44,489 bases of DNA from Dehalococcoidia bacterium (GCA_003567655.1 PWZA01000008.1:1-44489), one strand, 5' to 3'; positions 1,677 through 18,260 are shown, counted from the first letter of the stretch. Numbers and translations are program-made. The notes: generated by a model from the sequence alone, not told the origin.

Positions 1677-1695
1677 GACAAATACCTCATGATGC

Positions 1696-3072: not shown

Positions 3073-3123
3073 AACTGTTCCTCCATGGCCACCCGACAAG
3101 ACCGATCAGAATACCCCGCACTC

Positions 3124-4575
3124 CTATTCCTTCTGCCCATTCATCTCCCAGCGCAGATCCAGTTGCCTGAAGGCTCTGGCATCATCGAGCCTCCTCACAG
3201 GCGTATTCCGGGGAGCGCTATGAAGTATCTCTGGATTCTCCTCGGCGTCCTTCGCAATCTCCTTCATGGACGCGATGTAATTATCCAACGTCTCCCTGCT
3301 CTCGGTCTCCGTCGGTTCCGTCATGAGGGCCTCACTGACAATCAACGGGAAGTAGACTGTCGGAGGATGCAGACCGTAGTCAAGCAACCGCTTGGCGATA
3401 TCCAACGTAGCCACTCCCTTTGCCTTCTGCTTCTTGCCGGAGAACACTACCTCGTGCATACAGGTGCGGTCGTACGGCAGGTGATAATAGGCCTTTAGCT
3501 TCTCCTTAATGTAATTCGCGTTCAGGACGGCGTCCTCACTGATCCGCTTCAGCCCGTCCGGCCCCAGCGAAAGGGCATAGGCATAAGCCTTGACCAGCAC
3601 GCTGAAGTTACCGTAGAAACCGGCGATCTTTCCGATCGTCTTGGCCGGTGACACAAACCCATATCTACCGTTATCCTCAGACACGAGTGGTGTCGGCAAG
3701 AAATCAACCAGATTCTCCCTCACACAAAGAGGTCCTGAGCCGGGCCCACCACCCCCATGGGGGGTGCTGAATGTCTTATGCAGATTGAGCTGCACGTAGT
3801 CAAAGCCGAGCTCACCGAACTTGGCCTGTCCCAGGATAGCATTGAGATTCGCTCCGTCCCCACCCAGAAGGCCTCCTCGCTCATGCACCAATCGGCTGAT
3901 CTCGGCTATCTTGGGATCGAACAGACCGAGGGTCGAGGGCATGGTCAGAGTTAAAGCGGCCACTTCCTCCGTCATCATAGATTCCAGACTCTTAAGATCA
4001 AGGTCGCCCTTGTCATCAGAAGCCACGATGCCCGTGTCCAGTCCGCACATGGCAACGCTGGCGGGGTTAGTGCCATGGGATGAATCGGTGAGCAGTATCT
4101 TCTTTCTGGATCTGTCTCCTCGGTCCTCATGGTATGCCTTCACCATGAAGAGGCCGGCTAACTCACCGTGGGCTCCGGCCACCGGAACCAAACTGGTAGC
4201 ATTCGTACCCGTTACCTCGGTCAGATACTCCTGCAGGCGGTACATGAGCTCAAGCGCCCCCTGAACCGAGTCCTCAGGCTGATAGGGATGAAGCGCGGCA
4301 AAACCCGGTAACCTGGAAACATCCTCGTGCCACTTCGGATTATACTTCATGGTGCAACTTCCAAGAGGGTAGAATCCGGAGTCCACGCCGTAGTTAAGCT
4401 TACTCAAGGCGGTGAAATACCTCACGAGGTCGACCTCGCTGACCTCGGGTATTCGGAGTTCCTCACGGAGTGAATCTGCGGGTGGCAGGTCGCTCGATGG
4501 AACATCCAGACTGGGCAGAGTGCATCCTATGCGGCCCGGTCTACTTATCTCAGGTAGTAAGTAATGCTCTCTCAT
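3124..4575 (-). CDS. gcvPB: Glycine dehydrogenase (decarboxylating) subunit 2
   Basis: YPLGSCTMKYNP, HGTNPAS and PLP-lysine motif NLHKTFSTPHGGGGPG. Confidence 0.96.
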   Translation of the reverse strand: MREHYLLPEISRPGRIGCTLPSLDVPSSDLPPADSLREELRIPEVSEVDLVRYFTALSKLNYGVDSGFYPLGSCTMKYNPKWHEDVSRLPGFAALHPYQPEDSVQGALELMYRLQEYLTEVTGTNATSLVPVAGAHGELAGLFMVKAYHEDRGDRSRKKILLTDSSHGTNPASVAMCGLDTGIVASDDKGDLDLKSLESMMTEEVAALTLTMPSTLGLFDPKIAEISRLVHERGGLLGGDGANLNAILGQAKFGELGFDYVQLNLHKTFSTPHGGGGPGSGPLCVRENLVDFLPTPLVSEDNGRYGFVSPAKTIGKIAGFYGNFSVLVKAYAYALSLGPDGLKRISEDAVLNANYIKEKLKAYYHLPYDRTCMHEVVFSGKKQKAKGVATLDIAKRLLDYGLHPPTVYFPLIVSEALMTEPTETESRETLDNYIASMKEIAKDAEENPEILHSAPRNTPVRRLDDARAFRQLDLRWEMNGQKE

Positions 4576-4587
4576 ATTTCTTTCCTT

Positions 4588-5904
4588 CTATAGATCCCCG
4601 AGGGTTTTCACCAGTTTGTCGATCTCCTGCCTGGTGTTCACTTCCGTGACACAGAGTAGCATAGCGTTCTCCTCCAGATGGCTTATATCCAGACCGCCGA
4701 TTATACGTTCCTTGTAAAGAGCCTTGGATATATCGGATGGCGGCACAGGGCAACGGACAGCAAACTCCTTGAAGAAAGGCTGAGAGAAGACAAGGGAGTA
4801 CCCCTTCAGCTTGGTTATGGCATCGGCAGCGTAGTGTGCCTTGTGGTAGCATAACTCGGCTACCTGTCGCAGACCCTGCTTGCCCATTGCCGCAAGGTAG
4901 ACGGCCGCAGCCAGAGCCATCAAGGCCTGACTTGTACAGATATTAGATGTCGCCTGCTCACGACGAATATGTTGCTCGCGGGTGACCAGGGTCATCACAT
5001 ATCCCGGGTTACCATCGACATCCACCGTCTTGCCCACAATACGACCGGGCATGCGGCGTACATAGTCCTTGCGACAGGCGAAGATGCCCAGATAGGGGCC
5101 GCCGAAGCTGGCCGGAATACCGAGCGGCTGTCCCTCACCGACGGTGATATCAACTCCATATTCTCCCGGTGGCCTGAACATGCCCAGTGACGTGGGGTCT
5201 ACGACGGCGATAAGCAGGGCACCTGTATCATGAGCCTTCTGAACATAATGCTCCATCGGCTCGAAGTGGCCGAAGAAATTCGGTTGCTGGACTATGAGAC
5301 AGGCAAGATCGGTGGGGAGGCTATCTGAACCAGAATCCAGAGTTACCAGGGGGATATCCTTGCCGCTGCAGTAGGTATCGAGTACCTCACGATATGTCGG
5401 GTGTACCGTGGAAAGCACGGCCGCTTTGCTCCTGTTGGTGATCGCGCAGGCCATCATGGCGGCTTCGGCGGCAGAGGTACTGCCGTCATACATTCCGGCA
5501 TTGCTTACCTCCATTCCCGTCAGCTGGCATATCAGAGACTGGAATTCGTAGACTGACTGCAGTGTTCCCTGGCTGACCTCGGCCTGATATGGAGTATACG
5601 CAGTATAGAACTCGCTGCGACCAATGATATGGTCCACAATGCTGGGGATGAAGTGCCGGTAGCTACCAGCACCCAGGAAGCAAGCGTAGTCATCCGGATT
5701 CACATTGGAGTTCGCCAGTCGACCGAACTCCTTCTTCAGTTCGAACTCAGACAAAGCTGGAGGCAGGTTAAAGCTCGTATCACGGAATTCCTTCGGTATA
5801 TCACAAAACAGGTCGGCAACCGATTTCACGCCGATCTCGCGCAGCATAGCAGTGCGATCGGCCTCGGTGTTTGGCAGATATGGCAATGGCGTCCTATTGT
5901 TCAT
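4588..5904 (-). CDS. gcvPA: Glycine dehydrogenase subunit 1
   Basis: SEFYTAYTPYQAEVSQG and REQHIRREQATSNICTSQAL; probable start ATG 5904. Confidence 0.95.
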   Translation of the reverse strand: MNNRTPLPYLPNTEADRTAMLREIGVKSVADLFCDIPKEFRDTSFNLPPALSEFELKKEFGRLANSNVNPDDYACFLGAGSYRHFIPSIVDHIIGRSEFYTAYTPYQAEVSQGTLQSVYEFQSLICQLTGMEVSNAGMYDGSTSAAEAAMMACAITNRSKAAVLSTVHPTYREVLDTYCSGKDIPLVTLDSGSDSLPTDLACLIVQQPNFFGHFEPMEHYVQKAHDTGALLIAVVDPTSLGMFRPPGEYGVDITVGEGQPLGIPASFGGPYLGIFACRKDYVRRMPGRIVGKTVDVDGNPGYVMTLVTREQHIRREQATSNICTSQALMALAAAVYLAAMGKQGLRQVAELCYHKAHYAADAITKLKGYSLVFSQPFFKEFAVRCPVPPSDISKALYKERIIGGLDISHLEENAMLLCVTEVNTRQEIDKLVKTLGDL

Positions 5905-5923
5905 CCGCTCTCTGTTCTGCACA

Positions 5924-6313
5924 TTATGCAGATGCCTCCGCCTCATACTTCTCATACTCTTCGCTGTTCATGAGCGCGTCGAGTTGCGACGGGTCGCTGA
6001 GTTCCAGTTTCACCAGCCAGCCGGCTCCATAGGGATCTTCGTTCACCAGCTTGGGCTCATCAACCACGCTCTGGTTGATCTCCAGCACCTTGCCACCGGC
6101 CGGCGAAAACAGATCGGAGACCGCCTTCACCGATTCAACCTCACCTATCTTCTTGAACTGCTCCACCTCGGTACCCGGCTGCGGCAGATCCAGAAACACG
6201 ATGTCGCCGAGCTGGCTCTGTGCATAGTTGGCCAGCCCCATCTTCGCCTTGTTCTCAGACTCTATCGATAGCCACTCATGATCCTTTGTGTACTTGTAAT
6301 CCTTCGGGTTCAT
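5924..6313 (-). CDS. gcvH: Glycine cleavage H-protein
   Basis: YTKDHEW, lipoyl-lysine motif VESVKAVSD and NEDPYGAGWL. Confidence 0.97.
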   Translation of the reverse strand: MNPKDYKYTKDHEWLSIESENKAKMGLANYAQSQLGDIVFLDLPQPGTEVEQFKKIGEVESVKAVSDLFSPAGGKVLEINQSVVDEPKLVNEDPYGAGWLVKLELSDPSQLDALMNSEEYEKYEAEASA

Positions 6314-6314
6314 C

Positions 6315-7394
6315 TCACACTCCTCTCTTATAGAATCTCTTTTTAACTATGCGTGCCGGTGCAAGCTTGTTACGAAGCATTATCTCGATCCCGGTGCCGA
6401 TTGCAGACAGCTCAACGGGAACATAGCCGAGACCGATGTTGAGTCCCAGAGTCGGCGCATAGCCACCGCTGGTCACCTTACCGATTTCTAAACCAGAGGT
6501 ATAAATCGGGTATCCGGTGCGGGCTATTTCCCTTCCTTCCATTCGGAAACCGACCAGCTTGCGTCCAACACCCCTGCTCTTGATCTCAACGAGGGCTTCC
6601 CTGCCCACGAAGTCATCTCGCTCAAGATCGACCAGCCAACCCAGGTCGGCCTCGAAAGGATTGGTGCTCGAGTCCATATCCTGCCCGCAGAGCAGCATAC
6701 CGGCCTCTAATCGCAGGCTATCGCGTGCTCCCAGACCGCATGGTTTCACGCCCTGCTCGGTAAATGACTCCCATAGTGGCACTGCTAATGCTGCCTCGGC
6801 GATTATCTCAAAGCCATCCTCTCCCGTATATCCCGTTCGCCCCACTGAAACTTTCATATCGCCAATCTTAGTCTCTGCATAGCCGAAGCGCGGTAGATGA
6901 GTTACCCTGCCAAGGCTCTCCAGATCACAAGCTGCCGGCCCCTGCACCGCTATCATCACCGTAGAGGCCGACACATCCCTGATCTTGATATCGCGGTCGG
7001 AGCCCGCTCGACGGGTCAGCCAGTCAAGCTTACGCCTGGCATTGGCGGCATTCCAGACTATCAGGTAGCGATCGGCCCGGACACGAAACAGCCACAGATC
7101 ATCCAGAACCCCTCCATTCTCCAGACACATCATAGAGAGATGAGAGGAACCTACCTCCAAATCCTGTGCCGGCCTGGTCAATATAGAGTCCAGGAAGGAG
7201 CCTGCTTTGTTCCCCGTCACCCAGACCCGCCCCATGTCAGAGACATCGAATATACCGGCCGAATCCCTCACGGCCTTATGCTCCTCCAGAATTGACGTGT
7301 ACCACACAGGCAGCTCCCAGCCTGCAAAATCCATTATCCGTGCATTCAGCTTGCGGTGTACTTCGTTTAGAGGTGTCTTCTTCAACTCTTCCAT
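6315..7394 (-). CDS. gcvT: Aminomethyltransferase (T-protein)
   Basis: KTPL...DFAGWELP, RTGYTGEDGFE, GLGARDSLRLEAG and VTSG. Confidence 0.96.
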   Translation of the reverse strand: MEELKKTPLNEVHRKLNARIMDFAGWELPVWYTSILEEHKAVRDSAGIFDVSDMGRVWVTGNKAGSFLDSILTRPAQDLEVGSSHLSMMCLENGGVLDDLWLFRVRADRYLIVWNAANARRKLDWLTRRAGSDRDIKIRDVSASTVMIAVQGPAACDLESLGRVTHLPRFGYAETKIGDMKVSVGRTGYTGEDGFEIIAEAALAVPLWESFTEQGVKPCGLGARDSLRLEAGMLLCGQDMDSSTNPFEADLGWLVDLERDDFVGREALVEIKSRGVGRKLVGFRMEGREIARTGYPIYTSGLEIGKVTSGGYAPTLGLNIGLGYVPVELSAIGTGIEIMLRNKLAPARIVKKRFYKRGV

Positions 7395-7436
7395 AGTTTA
7401 CTTCTCGCCAGCAGGGTGCTCAAAATCCCCTCCATT

Positions 7437-7478
7437 AAACAAAACAGGAGAACTCGTTACTCACGAATTCCCCCCCTG
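7437..7478 (-). terminator. Intrinsic terminator forming the glycine riboswitch expression platform
   Basis: Minus strand GGGGAATTCGT-GAGTA-ACGAGTTCTCC hairpin followed by TGTTTTGTTT; its 5' arm overlaps the aptamer-2 P1 3' strand. Confidence 0.8.
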
Positions 7479-7664
7479 TCTCTTTCCCTGAGAGATTATC
7501 CGAGCACAATAGCCGCGGACTTACCCCGTCGGTGACCTCCAGCCGAGGTCTTTCCAGGGATTCAGTTTGCGGCAGTCCTTTTGCCTGAGAGTTTCGAAAC
7601 CGGGGCTCTCGACCCCGCTCCCTTGCACCTTCGGCTCCCTTATCAGGATCTCTCCTGCCGCAAA
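7472..7664 (-). ncRNA. Tandem glycine riboswitch
   Basis: Aptamer 1: GCAGGAGAGA...CCGAAGGTGCAA...ACTCTCAGGCAAAAGGACTGC; aptamer 2: CTGGAAAGA...CACCGACGGGGTAA...ATCTCTCAGG...GACAG; lies directly upstream of gcvT. Confidence 0.95.
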
Positions 7665-7683
7665 GCAAGAATCACGCTTAATC

Positions 7684-7713
7684 TTTGTACCATACGCGTA
7701 CCGGTATTGTCAA
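7684..7713 (-). promoter_or_regulatory. Sigma70-type promoter of the gcv operon
   Basis: TTGACA-N18-TACAAA with extended TG, just upstream of the riboswitch. Confidence 0.6.
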
Positions 7714-7896
7714 TGTGAGCTAGGGTTGATAAGACCGTGGCTATTCGGACTTTCACCCAAGCAGGCTATTTTCTCCGGGCGTTGGGCAAGGACATAACAG
7801 ACCGAGAACCGAGCCGACACTTGACATAATACCTTAACATCCAGAGGATCAACCGGGAAGATAGGCAGCATACTAGTGCAGGTCTCTCTCTGCTCC

Positions 7897-9024
7897 TCAA
7901 GCGGTTGCGAACGCGCTATCTGACAGGCTATCCAATGCTCCAGTGAGTCTGGCTACGTATTCGTCCACTTGGTTGCGGTCGAATCGTATCAGTCGGTCGG
8001 CTGTCTTCCGGCAGTAATCGCAACGGTAGCACTCAGAGAGGCAGTTCTGTTTCCTGAAGAAATCGATGAACCCGTCCAGAGCCTGGTTGTCAATATAGAG
8101 TTCGGGGGGAGGTGCCGGGGTGTGACCGGTCGCGCCAGTCGGGCCGGCGTTGACGAACCCGATCTTGGGAGCGAGGGCATTCAGAATATCATGCAGGTTC
8201 CCCTCATAGTGGCGGGACGAGTATGCTGCTGCGGCCCTCAGTATGCGCTCGGTGGGCATAGCCCGGCCGCTGATTTTGAACATACCGATACCGATGTCCT
8301 CGTACAGGTGCAGGTCCTCGGGCCTTATCCAGCGGCACTTGATGTTCTCAGACATGTCGCTTAGCCGGTCCAGGGTACAGCGAATGGTGCAATAGTCGAC
8401 GTAGCAACCATGCACAGGATTGTAGCTCTGGCTGGCATGTCCCAAGCCGTCATGGTGATAATACTCGTAGGGACACTGGTACAGACAGAGATTGTTAGCC
8501 AGTACGATGATCTCGCACTCCACCGCCTTCGTGATAGCTTCGAGTGTCCTGAAGTCCCGGTTTACGTGAAAGTCGAGGTTGATGGAATCGGCCCCTAGCG
8601 ACTCGAAGAACCGCGCCCGCGCTACATTGTGCACGTGCGCTATGGTCGATATCCGTATCTTGAGTTGCGGGAACTGCCGCTTTATGAGTTCCACCAGATA
8701 GGGAATGGTCACAGTCACGCTATCGACGCCGATGCAGGTGATCCAGTCAAGGTGCTCAATCAACTCCCGATGGGTGCTCTTGTCCCACTCCATGTTGCTC
8801 ATGCTGGGAGCATTGAGTAGATAGTCGAAATTGAGGCCAGCCGCATGGGCTCTTGTTATATACTCCTCAGCCTGACCTTTGGCCATGTCCACGTTGTCGG
8901 GACTGGACCCGCCGGTACCGATGAGAGAGGTGGTCAGCACGCCATACAGATCTACGCCGGCGTCGAGCCTGCTCAACCGCTCAATCAGGGCAGGGTCCCA
9001 ATTCGTCGGTACTAGAAGTCGCAT
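7897..9024 (-). CDS. U32-family ('peptidase U32') protein, probable Fe-S enzyme of unknown function
   Basis: Family-like motifs ISTIAHV, NNLCLYQCPY, CTIRC, WIRPEDL and FKISGR, plus C-terminal CLSECYRCDYC. Confidence 0.8.
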   Translation of the reverse strand: MRLLVPTNWDPALIERLSRLDAGVDLYGVLTTSLIGTGGSSPDNVDMAKGQAEEYITRAHAAGLNFDYLLNAPSMSNMEWDKSTHRELIEHLDWITCIGVDSVTVTIPYLVELIKRQFPQLKIRISTIAHVHNVARARFFESLGADSINLDFHVNRDFRTLEAITKAVECEIIVLANNLCLYQCPYEYYHHDGLGHASQSYNPVHGCYVDYCTIRCTLDRLSDMSENIKCRWIRPEDLHLYEDIGIGMFKISGRAMPTERILRAAAAYSSRHYEGNLHDILNALAPKIGFVNAGPTGATGHTPAPPPELYIDNQALDGFIDFFRKQNCLSECYRCDYCRKTADRLIRFDRNQVDEYVARLTGALDSLSDSAFATA

Positions 9025-9164
9025 GTTATTTCACGATGCGTGGCATAGTTTCGGGATGGGGGCAGTACAAGCCCACGTATTAGCATGGTTCGCGTTTGGC
9101 CGACCCATCATGCATATCGTACTACAACCGCGATCCAGTCCGACGCGGCTGTCAAAGAGGTGGC

Positions 9165-9920
9165 CTACGGAAAAGCTCCGCCATCGATTGTGATAACCTG
9201 TCCCGTTATATAGCCTGCTTTCTCACTAGCCAAAAAGGCTACTAGTTCGGCCACGTCCTCGGGTTGCCCCAGTCGCGCCAGCGGAATCAGGGACAGCAAA
9301 CCATCCCGCGTCTCCTGAGGGAGCCTATTCGTCATATCGGTCACGATGAAGCCGGGAGCGATGGCATTGACGGTTATGTTTCTTGAACCCATCTCGCGGG
9401 CCACGCTCTTGGTAAAGGCGATAATACCCCCCTTGGAGGCAGCATAGTTACACTGTCCGGCATTTCCTACCCTTCCGACAACAGAGGAGATACTGATCAC
9501 TCGTCCCCACTGCTGCTTCATCATATGCCTGACGGCATGTTTGGTACACAGGAAGGCTCCTTTCAGGTTGGTCTCTATCACTGCATCCCAGTCATCATCG
9601 GACATCCTGAGTAGAAGGGTGTCCTTGTTGATGCCGGCGTTGTTGACGAGGATATCGATCCTGCCCCATTTCTCAGCCACCTGCTCCACCATGGCCTTCA
9701 CGGCATCGCTGTTGCGGATATCGGCTTCCACAGGCATCGCCTTGCCGCCTGCATCAACTATGCTCTGCACAACTTCCCCTGCATCGTCCCTGTTACTGGG
9801 CTCGATTTCCACATAGTTGACTGCCACCATGGCACCCAGGCTGGCCAGCTTGAGGGCGATGGCTCTGCCTATGCCGCGGGAGGCACCGGTGACAAGAGAT
9901 ACCTTACCTTCCAGTTCCAC
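9165..9920 (-). CDS. fabG: 3-oxoacyl-ACP reductase
   Basis: TGASRGIG, NNAGI, GNAGQCNYAASK and APGFIVTDMT; FAS context. Confidence 0.92.
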   Translation of the reverse strand: MELEGKVSLVTGASRGIGRAIALKLASLGAMVAVNYVEIEPSNRDDAGEVVQSIVDAGGKAMPVEADIRNSDAVKAMVEQVAEKWGRIDILVNNAGINKDTLLLRMSDDDWDAVIETNLKGAFLCTKHAVRHMMKQQWGRVISISSVVGRVGNAGQCNYAASKGGIIAFTKSVAREMGSRNITVNAIAPGFIVTDMTNRLPQETRDGLLSLIPLARLGQPEDVAELVAFLASEKAGYITGQVITIDGGAFP

Positions 9921-9929
9921 AGTTCTTCC

Positions 9930-11207
9930 TTAGCTAACACGCCTGAGAACGAGACAGCAATTCTCACCGCCCAGGCCGAAGCTGTTCTTGAGAATCAGGT
10001 TCACCTGAGCCTGGCGGCCTGTGTTGGGAACGTAGTCCAGGTCGCAGTCGGGATCGGGCGTTTCGTAATTGATGGTCGGGTGGATGTAACCCTTGTTCAT
10101 GACCAACAGGGCAGCGATGGTCTCAACGACACCGGCTGCGGTGATTATATGGCCTATCATGGACTTGGTCGAGCTAATAGGCACATTATAAGCATGATCT
10201 CCGAGAACCATCTTGATGGCCTGGGTCTCGCAGGCATCATTAAGCTTGGTGCTCGTTCCATGGGCATTAATGTAATCGACATCTTCCGGCTTCGCCCCGG
10301 CATACTCCAGTGCAGTGCGCATTGCATAAGCCTCGGAATCGGGAGCGGGAGCGGTCGAATCATAGGCATCGAACGACCACCCCACACCGGCGAGCTCGGC
10401 CAGGATATTAGCTCCCCGTTTCACAGCGTGGTCATAGCTCTCGAGCACGATCAGCCCGGCGCCCTCACCGTAGACAAAGCCGTTGCGATTGAGGTCGAAT
10501 GGTCGGCAGGCCTTAGCGGGATCGGCCTCCCGGGACAGAGCTCCCAGAACATCTATTCCCGCCACACTTACAGGCTCAAGGCTGGAGTCGGACGCCCCCG
10601 CTATCATCACATCGGCATAGCCGAGTCGTATGAAGTTAGCGGCGGTACCTATGGCATCTGTACCGCTGGCACAAAGGCTATTGACAGCCCCGTTGGGACC
10701 CTTTGCTCCCAGCATCATCCCCACCTGCATCGATGCTCCGCTAGGGGTCGACCTGGTGATGAAGAGAGGATCAGCCCTCCTGGGACCGACCTTTAGATAG
10801 GTCTCCCATCCCCTGACCACATATCCCTGCTCTGTCATGGTGGATATCGTAACGCCTACGCGCTCAGGATTCTCCTGGCTCATGTCCAGTCCGGACGACT
10901 GTACAGCTTCCCTTGCGGCAGCAATGGAGAACTGAATGGTCCTCGAGGTGCGGTCGACTACCTTCAGATCCATATACTTCTCGGGCTCAAAGTCCTTCAC
11001 CTCGGCATTCACTTTAACTCGAAAGGGGGTGGGATCGAATCGGGTGATGGGGCTGAAGGCCGGCTTGCCCGCGGCAAGACCCTGCCAGAACTCGTCCGCA
11101 CTTAGCCCCAGCGGGTTGACAGTGCCCATGCCGGTGATTACCACCCTCGGTATCTTCATAGTTCCCCAGGAACTCACAGACCTCTCGGAAAACTCCGGCG
11201 TGCTCAT
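9930..11207 (-). CDS. fabF: Beta-ketoacyl-ACP synthase II (divergent)
   Basis: RVVITGMG, Cys-His-His triad (SLCASG, NAHGTST, KSMIGH) and NSFGLGG; alternative start at 11159. Confidence 0.88.
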   Translation of the reverse strand: MSTPEFSERSVSSWGTMKIPRVVITGMGTVNPLGLSADEFWQGLAAGKPAFSPITRFDPTPFRVKVNAEVKDFEPEKYMDLKVVDRTSRTIQFSIAAAREAVQSSGLDMSQENPERVGVTISTMTEQGYVVRGWETYLKVGPRRADPLFITRSTPSGASMQVGMMLGAKGPNGAVNSLCASGTDAIGTAANFIRLGYADVMIAGASDSSLEPVSVAGIDVLGALSREADPAKACRPFDLNRNGFVYGEGAGLIVLESYDHAVKRGANILAELAGVGWSFDAYDSTAPAPDSEAYAMRTALEYAGAKPEDVDYINAHGTSTKLNDACETQAIKMVLGDHAYNVPISSTKSMIGHIITAAGVVETIAALLVMNKGYIHPTINYETPDPDCDLDYVPNTGRQAQVNLILKNSFGLGGENCCLVLRRVS

Positions 11208-11980
11208 TCTCCCCCTTTTCCGGCGGCCGCGAACAACCCAACCGAAGTGCCTCCATCGACAACTACGGTCTGTCCCCTTATCATAAAAGCTTCTTCGCTA
11301 CACAAGAAGGCGACAACGTTAGCGACATCTTCGGGGCTGACCATTCTTCCCGCCGGAGTCAAGTAATGGCTGGCATTTGCCAACCCCTCCTTAAAGTAAA
11401 ACTTCAGGGCGTCTGTCTCAACTGCTGAGGCAGCAACAGTGTTCACGCATATGTTCTGAGATGCCAGCTCTATCGCCAGGTAGCGGGTCAGGGCTTCCAG
11501 TGCCGCCTTCGAGACTCCGACGACGGTGTAATTGGGTAATACATAGAGCGAACCAAGGCTGGATATGCTGACCACTTTGCCACCCCGTCCCTCCATCAGC
11601 TTTGCCGCCCTCTGAGTGAAGAGCAAAAGGGCCCTGGCGTTGATGTCCATCGTCCATTCCCAGGCCTTGGTATCCACCTCCATTACCGGCCGGCCTACCC
11701 CGGAAGCAGCGTTGCTAATCAATATGTCGAGGCGCCCGAACTTACTCTCGATCGTGTCGAACATCTCGTCGATCTTCGCCGGGTCTCCCACGTTGGCCCG
11801 TATGGTCTCAGCCTTAACTCCCAGCGCCTCGATCTCCCTGGCCGTTTCCGCAGCGCTCTCGCGGTGGCGGAAGAAGTTCACGATCACATCGGCACCCTGC
11901 GAGGCGAGCTTCAGGGCAATTGCCTTACCGATCCCCCGCCCACCGCCTGTGACCAGGGCAAGCTTCCCGTCCAGGGACAT
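11204..11980 (-). CDS. fabL: Enoyl-ACP reductase, FabL type (SDR)
   Basis: Closely matches recalled B. subtilis FabL motifs: ANVGDPAKI, NAASGV, NYTVVGVSKAALEALTRYLA, TPAGRMV and MIRGQT. Confidence 0.88.
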   Translation of the reverse strand: MSLDGKLALVTGGGRGIGKAIALKLASQGADVIVNFFRHRESAAETAREIEALGVKAETIRANVGDPAKIDEMFDTIESKFGRLDILISNAASGVGRPVMEVDTKAWEWTMDINARALLLFTQRAAKLMEGRGGKVVSISSLGSLYVLPNYTVVGVSKAALEALTRYLAIELASQNICVNTVAASAVETDALKFYFKEGLANASHYLTPAGRMVSPEDVANVVAFLCSEEAFMIRGQTVVVDGGTSVGLFAAAGKGGE

Positions 11981-11982
11981 TG

Positions 11983-12231
11983 TTACACCTTCCCCGCTTC
12001 AGCTACTTTGCCTTCCACATAAGAGACGAAATCGCCGAAGTTCTCGAACTTCTGGGCTACTTCATCAGGAATCTCGATCTCAAAGAGTTCCTCTACTGCC
12101 ACGAGTGCCTGCACCACGTCCAGGGAATCGGCCTTGATATCCTTGAACGTGCTTTCCCGGGTGATTATGCTCTTATCAACGCGGGTGATCCTGGCCACTA
12201 TGTCTCTTATTTGCTCTTCGATATTGCTCAT
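11983..12231 (-). CDS. acpP: Acyl carrier protein
   Basis: 82-aa acidic protein with ADSLD phosphopantetheine site and EELFEIEIPDE. Confidence 0.93.
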   Translation of the reverse strand: MSNIEEQIRDIVARITRVDKSIITRESTFKDIKADSLDVVQALVAVEELFEIEIPDEVAQKFENFGDFVSYVEGKVAEAGKV

Positions 12232-13277
12232 AACTTACCCCCTTGGTTTAATTTTGCCAGTTCCGTCTTCAAGCTCTCAGTGGTCTTTACTTTCACCGAG
12301 TTCTTAGCACTTTCTATCGCGTTGGCGATATGAGGCGCCCGGCTAGCCCCATGGGCTATCCTCACAACCCCATCAATGCCCCATAGGATTCCACCACCAC
12401 CTTTCTCGGTGTCAGTCGATATCCTGGTTGCCTGAAAAAGCTTATTGAACAACAGTTTAACCGAAAACCCCACTAATGGGTATTTTCTAAGCCTTCTCTC
12501 TGTCCATCCGCGGGCGTGACCCCCGACGCTTTCATAGAACTTAAGTAGCACGTTGCCTACGAATCCATCGCAGACGATTACATTAGCTTTGCTGCTTAGG
12601 ATTTCATTGCCCTCGATGTTGCCGACGAAGTTCAAGCCGCTCTCCTTGAAGAGAGCGTGAGCCTCCCGCACCGCTTCGCTTCCTTTGCTCTCTTCTCCGC
12701 CTGTGCTAAGCAGACCTATAGTGGGGTCGGAGATGTTTAGGAACTTCCTGGCATAGACAGATCCGACGATGGCGAATTCCAGGAACTGATGCGGTTTACA
12801 GTCGACATTCGCTCCCAGGTCCACCATGACGGTATTCGGCGCAAAGCTGCCCAGAGCGCCGACGATCGCCGGTCGGTACATTCCCTCCAGCATGCCGATA
12901 TACTGAATCGCGCTTACCGCTGCCGCGGCACTCGATCCTGCGCTCACGAAGGCATCCGCCTCACCGGACTTCACCAGCCTGGCTGCTACAGCTACAGAGC
13001 TATCTGGTTTGTGGCGGATGGCGGCGACGGGGGTTTCATCCTCGCCGATAAAACCGTCAGCTGCGATAATATGTATCGCCGAGTTGTTGGTGGACCTGTG
13101 TTTATCCAGATGGTTTTGCAGCAGCTCTGCCGCACCGACCAGGAAGACTTCTACATCATCTTGCTGTGCTGCAAGTACTGCACCCTTAACGACTTCCTCG
13201 GGGGCGTAATCACCCCCCATGGCGTCCACCGCCACTCTCACTCTGCTGTTCTGAGATACGTCTCTATTTCTGGCCAC
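12228..13277 (-). CDS. plsX: Phosphate acyltransferase PlsX (divergent)
   Basis: VAVDAMGGDYAP, DLGANVD, FVGNIEG, CDGFVGNVLLK and HGAS. Confidence 0.9.
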   Translation of the reverse strand: MARNRDVSQNSRVRVAVDAMGGDYAPEEVVKGAVLAAQQDDVEVFLVGAAELLQNHLDKHRSTNNSAIHIIAADGFIGEDETPVAAIRHKPDSSVAVAARLVKSGEADAFVSAGSSAAAAVSAIQYIGMLEGMYRPAIVGALGSFAPNTVMVDLGANVDCKPHQFLEFAIVGSVYARKFLNISDPTIGLLSTGGEESKGSEAVREAHALFKESGLNFVGNIEGNEILSSKANVIVCDGFVGNVLLKFYESVGGHARGWTERRLRKYPLVGFSVKLLFNKLFQATRISTDTEKGGGGILWGIDGVVRIAHGASRAPHIANAIESAKNSVKVKTTESLKTELAKLNQGGKL

Positions 13278-13686
13278 GTGATAACTTCGCTGTTGCCTCC
13301 CCTGCGACTACTACTTCATCCTTCTGATTGCGGACCTCAAAACCGCAATTTGCATATGATACACCATCTTTCACTTCAAGGGAATTCACGATGGAACTGA
13401 TAGTGAGAGTGTCTCCGGGACGCGCCACCTCCTTAAACTTGGCGCGGAGCTTACCGCAGGACAGCCAGTCTTGACCGAAGGAGAGCGCCATCATGTCTGA
13501 CACATACGCCAGGTTAAGCATGCCGTGTGCAATCGTGCCGCCGAATGGAGTCTTAACAGCAAAGGATTCATCCACGTGTATGGGGTTAAAGTCACCTGAT
13601 GCCTCGGCATAAAGGTTGATCTTATCCTGGGTGATATGCTTCACCACTGGATCCAGGGCCATTCCCTCGTGAATATCTGTAAGCAT
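13264..13686 (-). CDS. MaoC-type (R)-hydratase/dehydratase, catalytic subunit (HadB-like)
   Basis: Hydratase-2 motif YAEASGDFNPIHVD and IAHGML. Confidence 0.88.
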   Translation of the reverse strand: MLTDIHEGMALDPVVKHITQDKINLYAEASGDFNPIHVDESFAVKTPFGGTIAHGMLNLAYVSDMMALSFGQDWLSCGKLRAKFKEVARPGDTLTISSIVNSLEVKDGVSYANCGFEVRNQKDEVVVAGEATAKLSRGQK

Positions 13687-13687
13687 C

Positions 13688-14089
13688 TCATTCCTGAGGG
13701 GGCAAGGCTATGGTGGCCTTCCCTGATTGCACTCTCTCTCTGTCCTGGTCAAGTATGTCCAGCTCAAGGATAAGCATGCCCATCTTTCCTCGAGCAATCT
13801 TCTGTGCCACCCTGATCTGACACTCTACCATAGCGCCGATAGGGATCTGCTTGAAAAACCCGAGATCCTGCGAGGCGTGGATAGCCACAGTGTCGGGCGG
13901 CAATGATATAGACCCTGCCATAGTGGCGATGGCACAGGCTGTTATGGCCAGGGGAGGTACGAATCCATCGCTCGCGCCGTCCACGGCCCTCACATACTTG
14001 GAAACGAGCGACTCGCTCAGTTCATAGCTGATTCGGGGAAATTCGTAGCCGGGTACCAGTTCTTCGTAGCTAACAGTCTTGCCCTGCAT
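13688..14089 (-). CDS. MaoC N-terminal-type hot-dog protein (HadA-like partner)
   Basis: 133 aa with YVRAVD...VPPLA...IHASQDLGF pattern; 1 nt from the MaoC gene. Confidence 0.7.
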   Translation of the reverse strand: MQGKTVSYEELVPGYEFPRISYELSESLVSKYVRAVDGASDGFVPPLAITACAIATMAGSISLPPDTVAIHASQDLGFFKQIPIGAMVECQIRVAQKIARGKMGMLILELDILDQDRERVQSGKATIALPPQE

Positions 14090-14132
14090 TCGTCCCCTTA
14101 CCGATAGTACATCGGATAACTATGTATGGTAA

Positions 14133-14160
14133 ATTATACACGAGCCCGCATTATTGTCAA
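14133..14160 (-). promoter_or_regulatory. Sigma70-type promoter of the FAS operon
   Basis: Consensus TTGACA-N16-TATAAT on the minus strand. Confidence 0.75.
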
Positions 14161-14201
14161 CATTGCAGGGCTTAGATGATTACATACGGGACCATGACTC
14201 G

Positions 14202-14276
14202 TGGTGGGCTCGGCAGGGTTCGAACCTGCGACCAACCGGTTATGAGCCGGCCGCTCTGCCACTGAGCTACGAGCCC
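14202..14276 (-). tRNA. tRNA with CAT anticodon, probably Ile2 (lysidine); elongator Met not excluded
   Basis: Cloverleaf GGGCTCG...GCCGG-CTCATAA-CCGGT...GTTCGAACC...ACCA; paired G1-C72, so not an initiator. Confidence 0.9.
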
Positions 14277-14324
14277 GTACCCTCTGCCATTACGACCCGG
14301 GCTGTCATGGCAACAGGACTTCTC

Positions 14325-14399
14325 TGGAGCGGGAGACGGGACTCGAACCCGCGACACCCTGCTTGGAAGGCAGGAACTCTACCACTGAGTTACTCCCGC
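14325..14399 (-). tRNA. tRNA-Gly(TCC)
   Basis: GCGGGAG...CCTGC-CTTCCAA-GCAGG...GTTCGAGTC...TCCA; U73 discriminator. Confidence 0.96.
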
Positions 14400-14411
14400 A
14401 AATCTGAACCT

Positions 14412-14440
14412 ATTTTACCCGAAATAACATGATGGGTAAA
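14412..14440 (-). promoter_or_regulatory. Candidate promoter of the tRNA pair
   Basis: TTTACC-N17-TAAAAT ending 12 nt upstream of tRNA-Gly; also forms a TTTACCC/GGGTAAA inverted repeat. Confidence 0.5.
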
Positions 14441-14541
14441 CTGATGGTGCTGGGTAACTCTCTCACCCCAACAGTACTCGCAATGGGTGTAACTCAGGAT
14501 CACAGCTTCTGCTTGAATCTGGCCTCCGCTGCGGGATTGCC

Positions 14542-14952
14542 TTAAGCGCGTGGTCTGACGTAATCCTTGACCCAGCCTACTATCGTATCGAGTGACGTAC
14601 CCGGCAGGAACACCTCTTTGATACCAAGCTTCTTGAGCCTGGGGATGTCTTCCTCGGGTATGATGCCTCCACCTATGACCTGCACGTCGTCCAGCTTGTG
14701 TTCTTTAAGCAACTCGATCACGCGCCCGAACAGATGTATGTGCGCTCCAGAGAGACAGCTCAACCCGATCAGGTCGACATCCTCCTGCAAAGCAGCAGCT
14801 ACTATCTGTTCCGGCGTCTGGTGAAGACCTGTATAGACCACCTCAAAGCCGGCATCTCGAAAAGCCCTGGCAATCACCCTAGCCCCGCGGTCATGGCCGT
14901 CCAGCCCGGGCTTGGCTACCAGTATCCTCATTCTTCTTGCTGAGTCTGCCAT
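14542..14952 (-). CDS. Acyl-CoA mutase small (cobalamin-binding) subunit
   Basis: [12 protein letters not shown] (DxHxxG), GLSCLSGAH and GGGIIP. Confidence 0.95.
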
Positions 14953-15120
14953 TTCGTCAACCTCACTTTCAGGTGATCGTCCGGTCGGCGGAGAGCAGCC
15001 CCGCCGCTACATCCAGTTCGACTTCACCCTGAGCCTTTCCGGTCAGGGGAGAGTATAATTCTCTGGCTTCACACACCCCGGCCCTCTCGCATCCGATGAG
15101 AGGAGCACACGAGTCACAGG

Positions 15121-16800
15121 CTAGTAGTATCCGGGATCTCTATACTCACCGAAGACCTCACGCCACACATCACAGATCTCCTGCTCGGTGGCATATTCCT
15201 TAACCGCCGCTATCACGTAAGGCATCAGATTCTTGTCCGTCCTGCAGGCAGCACGCAGGTCGCTCAGGATCTGGATCACCTTGCGGTTATCCCGTGCGCT
15301 CTTTACTTCCTTCAGCCGGGCTATCTGCTTCTCCTCAACCCTCTCATCCAGCTTGAGTGTCTCGGCGGAAATGCCGTCCTCTGTGACATATTTGTTGATC
15401 CCCACCACGACTTTCTCTCCGCTATCAACCTGCTGCTGGTAATGATAAGCCGCATCGGCAATCTCCATCTGGGGAAAACCTCTGTCGATGGCGGCAAGCA
15501 TGCCTCCCATATCATCTATCTTGTTGATATACTCCCAGGCCTTTTCCTCCATCTGGCTGGTCATTGATTCCACAAAATACGAGCCGGCCAGCGGATCTAT
15601 GGTGTTGGCAACGCCGGTTTCATCGGCCAGGACTTGCTGGGTGCGGAGAGCGATAGTAACGGCAAAATCCGATGGCAAAGCCAGTGTCTCATCAAGGGAG
15701 TTGGTATGCAAAGACTGGGTTCCTCCCAGTACGGCAGCCAGGGCCTCGGTGGTAGTCCTTACAATATTATTGTAGGGCTGCTGGGCGGTTAGAGAGCAAC
15801 CCGCGGTTTGAGTATGAAATCTCATCCACAAGGAACGGGGATTCTTGGCTTTGAACCTCTCTTTCATAACCCTGGCCCACATCCTCCTGGCCGCCCTGAA
15901 CTTGGCTATCTCCTCGAAGAAATCGAGATGAGAATTGAAGAAGAAGGACAAACGTGGGGCAAAGGAGTCGACATCCAACTTCTTTCTTTCCAGCACATCC
16001 TCTACATAGGCTATCCCATCGGCAAGGGTAAAAGCCAGTTCCTGAATGGCAGTCGAGCCTGCCTCCCGAATGTGGTAACCGCTAATGCTTATGGTGTTCC
16101 AGGCCGGAACATGCATAGCCCCAAACTCAACGGCATCGCTTATGAGCCTGATCGACGGTTCAGGCGGAAGCATGAAGGTCTTCTGGGCTATGAACTCTTT
16201 AAGCATATCGTTCTGAATCGTGCCCCCGATCTTGTCCCAGCTGATCCCAGATCTGTCGGCGACACCTAAATACATCGCCCACAGTACAAGGGCAGGGGGG
16301 TTGATGGTCATCGACGTAGTCACGTCCTCAAGAGGGATCCTATCAGTCAGGATCTCGAAATCCCTCAGCGTATCGATGGCCACCCCACACTTCCCACACT
16401 CGCCCCGGGCTCGAGGCGAATCGGTATCGTACCCCATCAAGGTCGGGAAGTCGAAGGCGGTGCTCAGTCCGGTCTCACCCTCCTTAAGCAGGTGATGCCA
16501 TCTCTTGTTCGTGTCCTCGGCGCTGCCCATGCCGGAGAACATGCGGAACGTCCACTCCCTTCCGCGGTACATCGTAGGCTGACATCCTCTGGTAAAGGGA
16601 AAGATCCCCGGATACCCGATATCTCCGGCAAAGCTCAGATCCCTGACATCTTCCGGAGTATATACGGCCTTTATCTCGAAATCGGAAACCGTTGAGAATC
16701 TCTCTTTCCTCTCCGGCTTCTGCTTTCTAATCTTTTCTGCTTCTTTCTCCCACTCTTTCTTACCCTCCCGGGTCTCTCGCAGAGTCTTGTCCGTGAACAT
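15121..16800 (-). CDS. B12-dependent acyl-CoA mutase large subunit (isobutyryl-CoA mutase-like)
   Basis: PFTRG, GLSTAFDFPT, IQNDMLKEF, ISISGYHIREAG and GGTQSLHTNS; ATG 16800 with AAGGAG RBS. Confidence 0.92.
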   Translation of the reverse strand: MFTDKTLRETREGKKEWEKEAEKIRKQKPERKERFSTVSDFEIKAVYTPEDVRDLSFAGDIGYPGIFPFTRGCQPTMYRGREWTFRMFSGMGSAEDTNKRWHHLLKEGETGLSTAFDFPTLMGYDTDSPRARGECGKCGVAIDTLRDFEILTDRIPLEDVTTSMTINPPALVLWAMYLGVADRSGISWDKIGGTIQNDMLKEFIAQKTFMLPPEPSIRLISDAVEFGAMHVPAWNTISISGYHIREAGSTAIQELAFTLADGIAYVEDVLERKKLDVDSFAPRLSFFFNSHLDFFEEIAKFRAARRMWARVMKERFKAKNPRSLWMRFHTQTAGCSLTAQQPYNNIVRTTTEALAAVLGGTQSLHTNSLDETLALPSDFAVTIALRTQQVLADETGVANTIDPLAGSYFVESMTSQMEEKAWEYINKIDDMGGMLAAIDRGFPQMEIADAAYHYQQQVDSGEKVVVGINKYVTEDGISAETLKLDERVEEKQIARLKEVKSARDNRKVIQILSDLRAACRTDKNLMPYVIAAVKEYATEQEICDVWREVFGEYRDPGYY

Positions 16801-16811
16801 GTTCAACTCCT

Positions 16812-17954
16812 TTATTTCGTGCCCAGTATCTGGCGGGCGATCGTCCACCTCTGCATCTCCGATGTGCCTTCATAGATCTCGGTGATCCTCTGGTCACGGT
16901 AGTAGCGCTCCACGGCAAAGTCCTTGGTATAACCATAGCCACCGAATATCTGGAGAGCCTTGTTGCATACTCTATGTGCTGCCTCAGAGGCGAATACCTT
17001 GGCCATTGCCGCTTCCTTGGGAGGAGCATGGCCTTCCTTCTTTGTTAACCAGGCACCGCGGTAGGTCAGCAAGCGCGCTGCATCTATCTCCGTGGCCATA
17101 TCGGCGATCATCCACTGGATCGCCTGAAGGCGCGCCAACTCGGTATCGAACTGCTTCCTCTCTTTGGTATAGGCAACGGCCGCATCATAGGCAGCCTGAG
17201 CAATGCCCAGTGCCTGAGCAGCTATGCTGACTCTGCTGGCATCTATGCCCTGCAACGCTATCTTGAAGCCCTTACCTTCTTCTCCCAGCATATTGGTAGC
17301 CGGTATCCTGCAGTCATCGAAGATAAGCTCCGCTACTGAAGCAGGGTGCAGACCCATCTTCTTCTCCAGTTTACCTACAGAGAAACCCTTGGTACCCTTA
17401 TCTACGACAAAGGCACTGATACCGCGATAGCCCATGGATCTGTCCTTGGTCGCGAAGGTCGTCACGAAATCTGCCTCCGCGCCGTTGCTTATGAAGATCT
17501 TGGTCCCGTTGAGTACATAGTGATCTCCATCCCTGACATACCTGGTCTCCAGACCGGCAACATCGCTGCCAGCCATTGCTTCAGTCAGGGCGAAGGCCAC
17601 TATGGACCCATCTATTACGCGGGGAATATAGTTGCCCTTGTGCCCTTCATCACCATGCATCACGATGGGATACATGGCCAGGCCAAGGCTAACGAGATAC
17701 GCAACGCCCAGACCGGCAGAGGCCCGGGAGATCTCCTCACTCGCTATGGTGAAAGTCACCTCATCTCCGCTTCCTCCATACTGCTCAGGGAAGTGAACGC
17801 CGCACAGTCCGGCATCAGCCATCTTCTTATACGTCTCACGGGGAAACTCATTGGACTCATCCCACTTAGCAGCGTTCGGTTCGATCTCACGGGCACAAAA
17901 ATCCCGCACCATCGTCTGGAACATCTTATCTTCTTCGCTGAATCCGAAATCCAT
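16812..17954 (-). CDS. Short-chain acyl-CoA dehydrogenase (butyryl-CoA dehydrogenase-like)
   Basis: FALTEAMAGSD, LNGTKIFISNG, RKQF, GGYGY and IYEGTSE with catalytic Glu. Confidence 0.93.
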   Translation of the reverse strand: MDFGFSEEDKMFQTMVRDFCAREIEPNAAKWDESNEFPRETYKKMADAGLCGVHFPEQYGGSGDEVTFTIASEEISRASAGLGVAYLVSLGLAMYPIVMHGDEGHKGNYIPRVIDGSIVAFALTEAMAGSDVAGLETRYVRDGDHYVLNGTKIFISNGAEADFVTTFATKDRSMGYRGISAFVVDKGTKGFSVGKLEKKMGLHPASVAELIFDDCRIPATNMLGEEGKGFKIALQGIDASRVSIAAQALGIAQAAYDAAVAYTKERKQFDTELARLQAIQWMIADMATEIDAARLLTYRGAWLTKKEGHAPPKEAAMAKVFASEAAHRVCNKALQIFGGYGYTKDFAVERYYRDQRITEIYEGTSEMQRWTIARQILGTK

Positions 17955-18093
17955 ATAGCCTCCTTTATGCGCTATCTAAGAACCTCCTCACACTGCAGAC
18001 CAAACAGCGATGCTCAACTGTACCGCAGTTTCCTTATGCTGTTCTCCGGAAGAGGGCATCGCGGTCGGACTGCCTATCCCTGCCTCAGGCCTG

Positions 18094-18123
18094 ATTTTAC
18101 ATCTGGGCACCTATCGAGGTCAA
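18094..18123 (-). promoter_or_regulatory. Promoter of the acyl-CoA dehydrogenase/mutase operon
   Basis: TTGACC-N18-TAAAAT on the minus strand, back-to-back with the hppA promoter. Confidence 0.55.
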
Positions 18124-18134
18124 TTGCTTGGTCG

Positions 18135-18163
18135 TTGACGGATAGAGCCTCCTGTATTACACT
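18135..18163 (+). promoter_or_regulatory. Promoter of hppA
   Basis: TTGACG-N17-TACACT. Confidence 0.65.
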
Positions 18164-18188
18164 TACTCCTCGAACACGCCCGTTACCC

Positions 18189-18245
18189 CGAACACAGGTT
18201 AAGATGGCACCCGAAACCGGCGTTAGTGCCCTGGTCGTGTGCCCG
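18189..18245 (+). ncRNA. Candidate cation (Na+)-sensing riboswitch-like leader
   Basis: CACA-GGTTAAG-AT-GGCAC...GTGCC-CTGGTCG-TGTG nested stems in the hppA 5' UTR; resemblance to DUF1646/nhaA-I motifs is from memory. Confidence 0.45.
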
Positions 18246-18260
18246 AAAGGAAGGTGAGCT

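Follow-up and report, generated by a model that had tools for sequence, protein, structure and literature searches.

What role does a protein of the U32 family play when its gene stands behind a fatty acid synthesis operon? The question is raised by a contig of 44,489 nucleotides (nt) from an uncultured Dehalococcoidia bacterium (GCA_003567655.1, PWZA01000008.1:1-44489), called the window in the following, by which we mean the whole stretch analysed. On its minus strand a gene for a U32 protein of 375 amino acids (aa) (7897..9024) lies 140 nt downstream of a type II fatty acid synthase (FAS-II) operon (9165..14089). The window corresponds to contig C205 in a metagenome-assembled Dehalococcoidia genome of 2.07 Mb (G000; 233 contigs, 93% complete, 8.24% contamination). 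Genes were taken from open reading frame (ORF) calls on the window, and families were assigned by Pfam and NCBIfam profile scores in relation to their cut-offs. An initial annotation had proposed that operon and U32 gene form a dedicated acyl-modification system acting on a chain bound to acyl carrier protein (ACP). We favour, with a probability of roughly 0.4, a different reading in which the U32 protein is an accessory O2-independent oxidase that works together with a FadD-like ligase in lipid metabolism.

The U32 gene is the only match to PF01136 in the genome, and its score places the product within the family (E 7.4e-13; 48.8 bits at a gathering cut-off of 22.4, residues 87-269). With 46 relatives in the alignment, an AlphaFold2 model reached a predicted local distance difference test score (pLDDT) of 90.8. 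Its best Foldseek match was the U32 protein Mk0906 (PDB 5d88; E 4e-13, template modelling (TM) score 0.75 on the target), in agreement with the U32 barrel, and all remaining structural matches were generic triosephosphate isomerase (TIM) barrels. PDB sequence and profile searches likewise returned 5d88 as the only match. Cysteines are found at positions 97, 170, 180, 184, 207, 212, 216, 230, 328, 332, 335 and 338. The arrangement CX3C...CX3C plus a C-terminal CX3CX2CX2C, as described in the initial annotation, is present with exactly these spacings (C180-X3-C184, C212-X3-C216 and C328-X3-C332-X2-C335-X2-C338). Across 46 sequences no exchange is seen at C184, C216, C332, C335 and C338, while C180 and C328 reach a conservation of at least 90%. 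C212 is kept only in clade A, the orthologue clade of the window protein. The nearly invariant H190 and H196 are candidates for the fourth ligand of the metal site.

The classical U32 oxidase motif reads CX6CX15CX3/4C (PMC6747719, excerpt). According to our alignment the subfamily of the window protein is devoid of the segment of about 25 residues that bears the CX6C half, so that the classical four-cysteine motif is incomplete; the C180/C184 pair aligns with the last two cysteines of this motif, and the C-terminal CX3CX2CX2C is added and conserved across the subfamily. As judged from the alignment, the metal site of the subfamily is a variant rather than the classical motif, and the two cysteine groups probably bind two metal clusters. 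When compared by description only, the pattern fits none of the U32 descriptions in the excerpt of PMC6747719. The subfamily is large, comprising 1614 cluster representatives at E <= 0.001 and 471 at E <= 1e-30, and the nearest representative outside the window protein's own cluster is 49% identical.

How does this subfamily relate to U32 enzymes of known function? Three functions have been described, namely anaerobic ubiquinone hydroxylation and two RNA hydroxylations, and most subfamilies are uncharacterised (PMC10990095, excerpt). Twelve U32 subfamilies are distinguished in PMC5727448. The characterised members are hydroxylation factors (PMC11574389, excerpt), and prephenate-dependent U32 hydroxylation has a published basis in the excerpts of both papers. 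The characterised substrates are all aromatic or heteroaromatic rings, and the published mechanism begins with an oxidation of the ring (PMC10990095, excerpt). Our literature searches returned no paper on U32 proteins in Dehalococcoidia and, among the matches listed, none linking U32 to fatty acids, a review being the only one there to treat U32 enzymes. A search combining peptidase U32 with radical S-adenosylmethionine (SAM), chorismate mutase and gene cluster gave nothing relevant, and one for new U32 hydroxylation substrates from 2023 on gave papers on ubiquinone and tRNA only.

We compared the window protein by BLASTP with the E. coli paralogues UbiU, UbiV, TrhP and RlhA (from NC_000913.3) and calculated two trees, one with FastTree (249 rows) and one in the quick mode of IQ-TREE (62 rows). 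In both, one side of the tree holds all four E. coli proteins, and the window protein belongs to clade A (support 99-100; Shimodaira-Hasegawa-like approximate likelihood ratio test 99). TrhP was the sole NCBIfam model matching the protein, at 25.5 bits versus a cut-off of 534 (NF011996). The subfamily tree that had been suggested as a check, BLASTP and the NCBIfam scores thus agree in setting the protein apart from the TrhP/RlhA RNA hydroxylases. On these sequence comparisons it is a member of a separate, uncharacterised U32 subfamily, equally far from TrhP/RlhA and from UbiU/UbiV.

Next to its family, the genomic surroundings of the protein are informative. With the family profile at E <= 1e-20 we found U32 genes in 23 of 401 sampled Dehalococcoidia genomes (the class sample) and in 7 of 401 sampled Chloroflexota genomes. 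Clade A is represented in 13 of the 23: six belong to the window's own genus (g1), five to genera g2, g4 and g218 of the same family and two to a family of another order (f10). Clade-A genomes come from two families of different orders; other families of the window's order showed neither the U32 gene nor the ligase introduced below (f2, 0/11; f3, 0/2). Within genus g1 and on closely related contigs (66-87% identity) fab genes are located directly upstream of U32 and co-oriented with it in 17 of the 19 genome loci, the other two having less than 600 nt of upstream sequence. Six of the 19 are devoid of fabG, and U32 there follows fabF. Downstream of U32 the 19 loci show gcv genes in three cases and rpsL-rpsG-fusA in twelve, the latter about 500 nt away.

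Outside the window's genus the arrangement changes. In g2, g4 and g218 (54-59% identity) U32 and the fab operon converge, and on its other side U32 diverges from a gene for a FadD-like AMP-binding ligase. The ligase gene also adjoins U32 in f10 (56% identity), where the fab operon does not; one f10 locus has a plsX fragment and DegV downstream. Altogether the divergent ligase is a neighbour in 7/7 of these genomes and the convergent fab operon in 5/7. Clade-A loci from metagenomes (n = 19) show the same picture: the divergent ligase is present in 12 of the 13 with at least 1.5 kb of upstream sequence, convergent fab genes in 9 of the 16 with at least 1.5 kb downstream, and DegV in four, and co-oriented fab genes upstream of U32 were found in none of the 19. 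Members of a sister clade (L074, L089) are flanked by DegV genes. The lipid link of U32 is real at the level of gene neighbourhood and survives both inversion and a change of neighbours. The expectation that orthologues neighbour acp, fabF, MaoC and plsX holds insofar as a lipid-gene neighbourhood is kept across genera, in one further family and on many metagenome contigs. It does not hold for membership in the FAS-II operon, with which U32 is not co-conserved, being convergent in g2, g4 and g218, not beside it in f10 and not found in genus g3.

Genus g3 carries the same hadA-hadB-plsX-acp-fabL-fabF-fabG operon despite the missing U32 gene (no PF01136 match in two genomes, 99-100% complete). 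The operon is followed there by a second plsX, DegV, a FakA-like gene and a second FabF, and one genome (G308) also has orthologues of the ligase and of a B12-binding radical SAM enzyme. U32 can thus be described as an optional resident of a lipid island. As a side observation, the FakA-like gene at both g3 loci (L163, G308:C20; L164, G186:C15) is of the YloV type and the second FabF scores 606 bits (cut-off 494); this extension resembles a fatty-acid kinase and uptake module joined to the FAS locus. None of five near-complete close relatives without clade A has any other U32 gene, which argues against a housekeeping RNA role.

We then considered which gene accompanies U32 most closely across genomes. 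An orthologue of the ligase, counted at E <= 1e-120 in the class sample, is present in 15 of the 401 genomes, i.e. in 13/13 with clade A and in 2/388 others (G308, G683). The most faithful genomic partner of clade A is consequently the FadD-like AMP-forming ligase and not the synthase (ACP/FabF). The ligase obtains its highest scores with models of long-chain-fatty-acid--CoA ligases, and in the window genome its gene occupies positions 1579-3189 of contig C52, next to a gene for an enoyl-CoA hydratase and close to one for a 3-hydroxyacyl-CoA dehydrogenase. The B12 radical SAM enzyme, whose gene adjoins that of the ligase in some genomes, was likewise tried as an obligate partner and rejected: its orthologue occurs in 87 of the 401 genomes, many of them without U32, and was not found in g4, which has U32, so that the two are not coupled.

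Does U32 have a promoter of its own? The spacer between fabG and U32 (9025..9164, (-)) keeps a -35 TTGACA and an ACGATAT box, and no -10 hexamer was recognised. A promoter and terminator scan of its 140 nt predicted no complete promoter and no terminator, and its fold is no better than that of shuffled sequences (z -0.9). Spacers before U32 in relatives of the window's genus range from 62 to about 520 nt, and most of them contain a conserved, predicted TTGACA-17-CATAAT promoter and a leader hairpin. In the closest relative with a complete spacer (L002, 83% identical) the gap is 62 nt and the promoter region is gone altogether. A former U32 promoter thus looks eroded in the window's sub-lineage, as far as can be told from these spacers. 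Some relatives have this promoter in duplicate (L012, 9686-9714 and 9864-9892; also L007, L013 and L018), followed by a conserved ATCG..CGAT inverted repeat and the leader hairpin (GGGGCACATGTGCCC plus U-run); the L012 leader matched no Rfam family at E <= 1. Inverted repeat and hairpin, which are mostly lost in the window, could be an operator or attenuator.

Beyond clade A we surveyed 79 metagenome loci of the subfamily, in which the commonest neighbour is a B12-binding radical SAM enzyme (35 loci). It is located directly downstream of U32 and co-oriented in 24 of the 25 loci with enough sequence in group B, which comprises 34 loci 34-40% identical to the window protein. Within 6 kb, nine of the 34 also have a type II chorismate mutase (CM_2) and eight a class I/II aminotransferase. 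A gene for 3-deoxy-D-arabino-heptulosonate 7-phosphate (DAHP) synthase lies directly downstream of one distant subfamily member, and a small radical SAM gene directly upstream elsewhere in the subfamily. In L055, a relative with 42% identity, the second gene downstream encodes a UbiA-family prenyltransferase. The window genome holds chorismate synthase and an AroH-type chorismate mutase, and a profile search of it gave no CM_2 and no PDT match; to judge by these genes it can make prephenate. The links to chorismate mutase and DAHP synthase fit prephenate as the oxygen source of U32 enzymes (PMC10990095, excerpt).

Several arrangements within the subfamily were noted in passing. On metagenome contigs L106-L148 a clade of relatives of 417-430 aa forms an operon of U32 and B12 radical SAM genes. 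The radical SAM protein is BchE/HpnR-like with 190-250 bits, under the cut-offs; a small unknown convergent gene lies alongside, and genes for an Fe/Mn superoxide dismutase and Hsp20 are nearby. Distant members occur within molybdenum-enzyme clusters (L061 and L062 in G629 and G447; L031-L033 in G008). One type combines an ethylbenzene-dehydrogenase (EBDH)-like alpha/beta/gamma set with a NarJ-like chaperone and two PaaK-like ligases; in the other, a single genome of 1.5 Mb holds four U32 paralogues, which adjoin xanthine-dehydrogenase-type enzymes and two-component regulators. Among the representatives P0146, P0141, P0133, P0149 and P0159 one is fused to a class I SAM methyltransferase and several have a C-terminal extension of about 90 aa with a weak DUF2621 match (27.9-29.5 bits, cut-off 27.7).

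From family, fold, conserved cysteines, gene neighbourhoods and genome distribution we infer the following picture of cluster binding, chemistry, substrate and transcription. The U32 protein would be a stand-alone accessory Fe-S enzyme, a TIM barrel with C180, C184 and C216 plus the C-terminal CX3CX2CX2C. Its substrate, oxidised without O2, would be a carboxylic acid, most probably a fatty acid, which the ligase converts to the thioester and thereby activates. UbiU/UbiV, TrhP and RlhA suggest by analogy that this reaction would most probably be a hydroxylation in which prephenate supplies the oxygen. In the window's sub-lineage the U32 gene would have moved to the tail of the main fab operon, and it may now be read through from fabG, since it stands there with a former promoter that looks eroded.

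A number of observations weigh against this reading of an oxidase acting on a ligase-activated fatty acid. The neighbours in other branches are PaaK-like ligases, EBDH-type and xanthine-dehydrogenase-type molybdenum enzymes, UbiA-type prenyltransferases and B12 radical SAM enzymes, so that substrates clearly differ between branches. The ligase stays under the NCBIfam cut-offs (386 bits versus 476) and is also matched by benzoate-CoA ligase models at 250-263 bits (220-263 bits with the 3-hydroxybenzoate-CoA models included); an aromatic acid is therefore possible as its substrate. In the window's genus its gene lies on another contig than U32. The sister genus g3, without a PF01136 match, keeps the fab/ligase/DegV/radical SAM island, which accordingly does not need U32. 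All counts come from related genomes of two families with inherited gene order and thus overstate independence. An aliphatic acyl chain would be a new kind of substrate, as known U32 chemistry takes place on aromatic rings (PMC10990095, excerpt), and the reading is drawn from genes and a predicted structure. A more far-reaching version appears unlikely to us. According to it, clade A would be the first U32 enzyme acting on an aliphatic lipid, a prephenate-dependent, O2-independent hydroxylase or oxidase of fatty acyl thioesters supplied by the FadD-like ligase or, in the window's lineage, carried on ACP, with hydroxy or oxo fatty acids as products in Dehalococcoidia, which are strict anaerobes. 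As part of this unlikely version, the whole two-cluster subfamily would form an anaerobic oxygen-inserting toolbox together with B12 radical SAM methylases, CoA ligases and molybdenum hydroxylases.

The alternatives differ mainly in the substrate. It is possible, if doubtful, that the lipid neighbours reflect inherited gene order and that U32 and ligase act on a non-lipid acid, e.g. an aromatic acid-CoA, in anaerobic aromatic or small-molecule metabolism. The PaaK-like ligases and the EBDH-like and xanthine-dehydrogenase-type enzymes of other branches, the benzoate-type matches of the ligase and the aromatic substrates of known U32 enzymes (PMC10990095, excerpt) would suit such a role. However, clade A and its sister clade stand next to fab genes, plsX, DegV and a ligase scoring best as fatty-acid ligase, which itself adjoins beta-oxidation genes, and no molybdenum enzyme or PaaK-like ligase was seen beside clade-A members. 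We consider it distinctly unlikely that U32 is, as initially proposed, a working part of the fab operon which hydroxylates or desaturates the growing ACP-bound chain together with the MaoC pair. This proposal draws on the position 140 nt after fabG on the same strand without a predicted terminator or complete promoter in between, on the gap of just 62 nt in the closest relative, on the adjacency to fabF that persists in the 6/19 loci devoid of fabG, and on the apparent erosion of the ancestral promoter, which would fit a capture into the operon. Yet most genus relatives bear a conserved promoter of their own before U32, the gene is convergent with the operon in the sister genera and apart from it in f10, g3 has the operon without a U32 gene being found, clade A is restricted to 13/401 class genomes, and the constant partner is the ligase. 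Nothing we found speaks for an ACP-bound chain, a role of the MaoC pair or desaturation, and this specific model is not supported.

A role as RNA hydroxylase like TrhP or RlhA, with the fab adjacency due to chance, seems improbable. It would be in line with the single U32 gene of the genome, the weak sequence matches to TrhP and RlhA and the rpsL-rpsG-fusA operon about 500 nt downstream in 12 of the 19 relatives. It agrees poorly with the low score of the TrhP model (25.5 bits versus 534), the missing DUF3656, the patchy distribution (13/401 genomes), the co-distribution and adjacency with the ligase and the metabolic genes that surround the subfamily as a whole. A quinone-ring hydroxylase like UbiU/UbiV is very improbable and disfavoured: a MenA-like prenyltransferase and a HemN-like radical SAM gene are found about 4-5 kb away in g2 and the UbiA-family gene two genes downstream of L055, but three of the five clade-A genomes of 96-98% completeness have no UbiA-family match, BLASTP to UbiU gave E 0.48, and a single U32 gene leaves no UbiU/UbiV-type pair. 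Hardly credible is a true peptidase, although the sources label the protein "collagenase-like PrtC family protease" or "U32 family peptidase"; with its seven to eight conserved cysteines, which form two groups, it would fit an Fe-S protein, the family has no defined catalytic residues of a peptidase, and the characterised members are hydroxylation factors (PMC11574389, excerpt). The earlier view that the protein is neither a protease nor an RNA enzyme is reasonable.

If the U32 protein is an accessory enzyme, what is the operon before it? ORF and family calls confirm the order given in the initial annotation, including the co-oriented U32 gene 140 nt further on. A predicted sigma-70-like promoter (TTGACA-16-TATAAT, 14133..14160, (-)), a consensus match in 12 of 12 positions, precedes the operon. 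Its first gene (13688..14089, (-)) encodes a small protein of 133 aa without a Pfam match and with only a weak match to the hydratase part of NF006045 (E 1.1e-5), so that the name hadA-like is plausible but tentative; orthologues hold the same position in the operons of relatives. The second encodes a MaoC-type, hadB-like dehydratase subunit of 140 aa (13264..13686, (-); PF01575 MaoC_dehydratas, E 6.6e-22), which HadB and fused HadA/HadB models match far under their cut-offs. These are followed, all on the minus strand, by plsX for a phosphate acyltransferase (12228..13277, 349 aa; TIGR00182, 285 bits versus 243), acp for the acyl carrier protein (11983..12231, 82 aa; PF00550, and TIGR00517 with 70.1 bits versus 70.45), fabL for an enoyl-ACP reductase of the short-chain dehydrogenase/reductase type (11204..11980, 258 aa; NF005975, 361 bits versus 328), fabF for beta-ketoacyl-ACP synthase II (9930..11207, 425 aa; NF005589, 464 bits versus 387; TIGR03150, 482 versus 494) and fabG for 3-oxoacyl-ACP reductase (9165..9920, 251 aa; TIGR01830, 338 bits versus 298). 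Between the hadA-like gene and fabG, neighbouring genes overlap by 14 nt (hadB-like/plsX) or by 4 nt (plsX/acp and fabL/fabF) and are otherwise 1 nt (hadA-like/hadB-like), 2 nt (acp/fabL) and 9 nt (fabF/fabG) apart.

The reported absence of fabH, fabD, fabZ and acc from the window is borne out to the extent that none turned up in scans covering 12 of the 36 remaining ORFs. Elsewhere in the genome a profile search for FabD, FabH and FabZ found a FabD that exceeds its cut-off. FabH-like and FabZ-like genes, both under their cut-offs, are on contig C67, and further ketosynthases on C93 and C67. In the whole genome plsX is matched only in the window operon, and no other ACP or FabF match scores as high as those found there. 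We therefore read this operon as the main FAS-II of the lineage, equipped with a dehydratase pair of the MaoC type, and not as the dedicated modification system proposed before.

Other acyl genes of the genome were noted as well. Contig C93 (about 15000-18414) has a paralogue of the ligase, a ketosynthase 45% identical to FabF and a second ACP, and C67 (about 7110-19972) has FabZ-like, FabG-like, ketosynthase and beta-ketoacyl-ACP synthase III-like genes with the AroH-type chorismate mutase about 6 kb away. A second hadA/hadB pair on C72 (6567-7386) is 77-82% identical to that of the window; given the contamination of 8.24%, this pair may belong to a relative binned together with the genome and not be a paralogous copy.

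On both sides the locus is bordered by further metabolic genes. Downstream of U32 and before gcvT lies a tandem glycine riboswitch (7468-7562 and 7563-7667, (-)), whose second aptamer overlaps a predicted "terminator" (7474-7446). It is followed by gcvT-gcvH-gcvPA-gcvPB, a dihydrolipoamide-dehydrogenase-like gene (lpd, 1696-3099) and lipA for lipoyl synthase (70-954; TIGR00510, 373 bits versus 310). This block (70-7667, (-)) represents a complete glycine-cleavage and lipoylation set right after the FAS genes. On the other side two tRNA genes (14205-14399, (-)) separate the fab promoter from a block (14542-17954, (-)) with the B12 and large subunits of methylmalonyl-CoA mutase and an acyl-CoA dehydrogenase. 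The same block is located upstream of the fab operon in L016 and L017, and the B12 subunit gene of the mutase also in L005 and L008.

These results mark out a large U32 subfamily with a differing cysteine pattern, whose gene neighbours suggest small molecules and lipids as substrates and, as a separate line, a link to the prephenate pathway. Specific combinations can be named, namely U32 with the FadD-like ligase, U32 with B12 radical SAM enzyme and chorismate mutase, and U32 with PaaK-like ligases and an EBDH-like enzyme. A lipid substrate, if true, would extend prephenate-dependent oxygen insertion past aromatic rings and could explain oxygenated lipids in strict anaerobes. The gene adjoining the fab operon is an optional neighbour, and the locus is no new kind of synthase module.

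Finally, we compared the window protein with known systems. UbiU and UbiV (E. coli YhbU/YhbV), the factors for O2-independent ubiquinone hydroxylation, share the U32 TIM-barrel family with it. Their product acts on a lipid-soluble molecule, the window genome appears able to make prephenate, and the conserved cysteines of the window protein would fit a [4Fe-4S] site as found there. In contrast to this heterodimeric pair the window genome has a single U32 gene, and its product is without the CX6C half and has the additional C-terminal CX3CX2CX2C. BLASTP similarity is not significant (UbiU, E 0.48; UbiV, a match of 10 residues, E 6.0). TrhP (YegQ), a prephenate-dependent tRNA U34 hydroxylase, has the barrel in common with the window protein, and its model matches residues 46-155; identity is 21% over 177 aa, the proteins fall into separate clades, and the window protein has metabolic neighbours. 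RlhA (YdcP), the hydroxylation factor for 23S rRNA C2501, resembles it in the barrel (22% over 226 aa, E 2e-7) and also has extra C-terminal cysteines (PMC5727448, excerpt). DUF3656, which marks the RlhA subfamily (PMC5727448, excerpt), is missing from the window protein, in which Pfam found PF01136 alone, and E. coli RlhA is with about 650 aa by gene coordinates considerably longer than the 375 aa of the window protein. Mk0906, an uncharacterised protein from Methanopyrus kandleri (PDB 5d88), is the one U32 protein with a solved structure and gives both the best fold match and the sole PDB sequence match; identity is 19%, and the solved chain comprises only the barrel (254 residues). A last comparison concerns FabX of Helicobacter pylori, a TIM-barrel acyl-ACP dehydrogenase/isomerase with flavin and a [4Fe-4S] cluster that belongs to the FabK/NMO type. 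Although this is another family, and FabK chains are merely generic TIM-barrel matches to the U32 model (TM about 0.3), FabX would be a precedent for an O2-free Fe-S TIM-barrel enzyme working on acyl-ACP, as the idea of unsaturation had implied.

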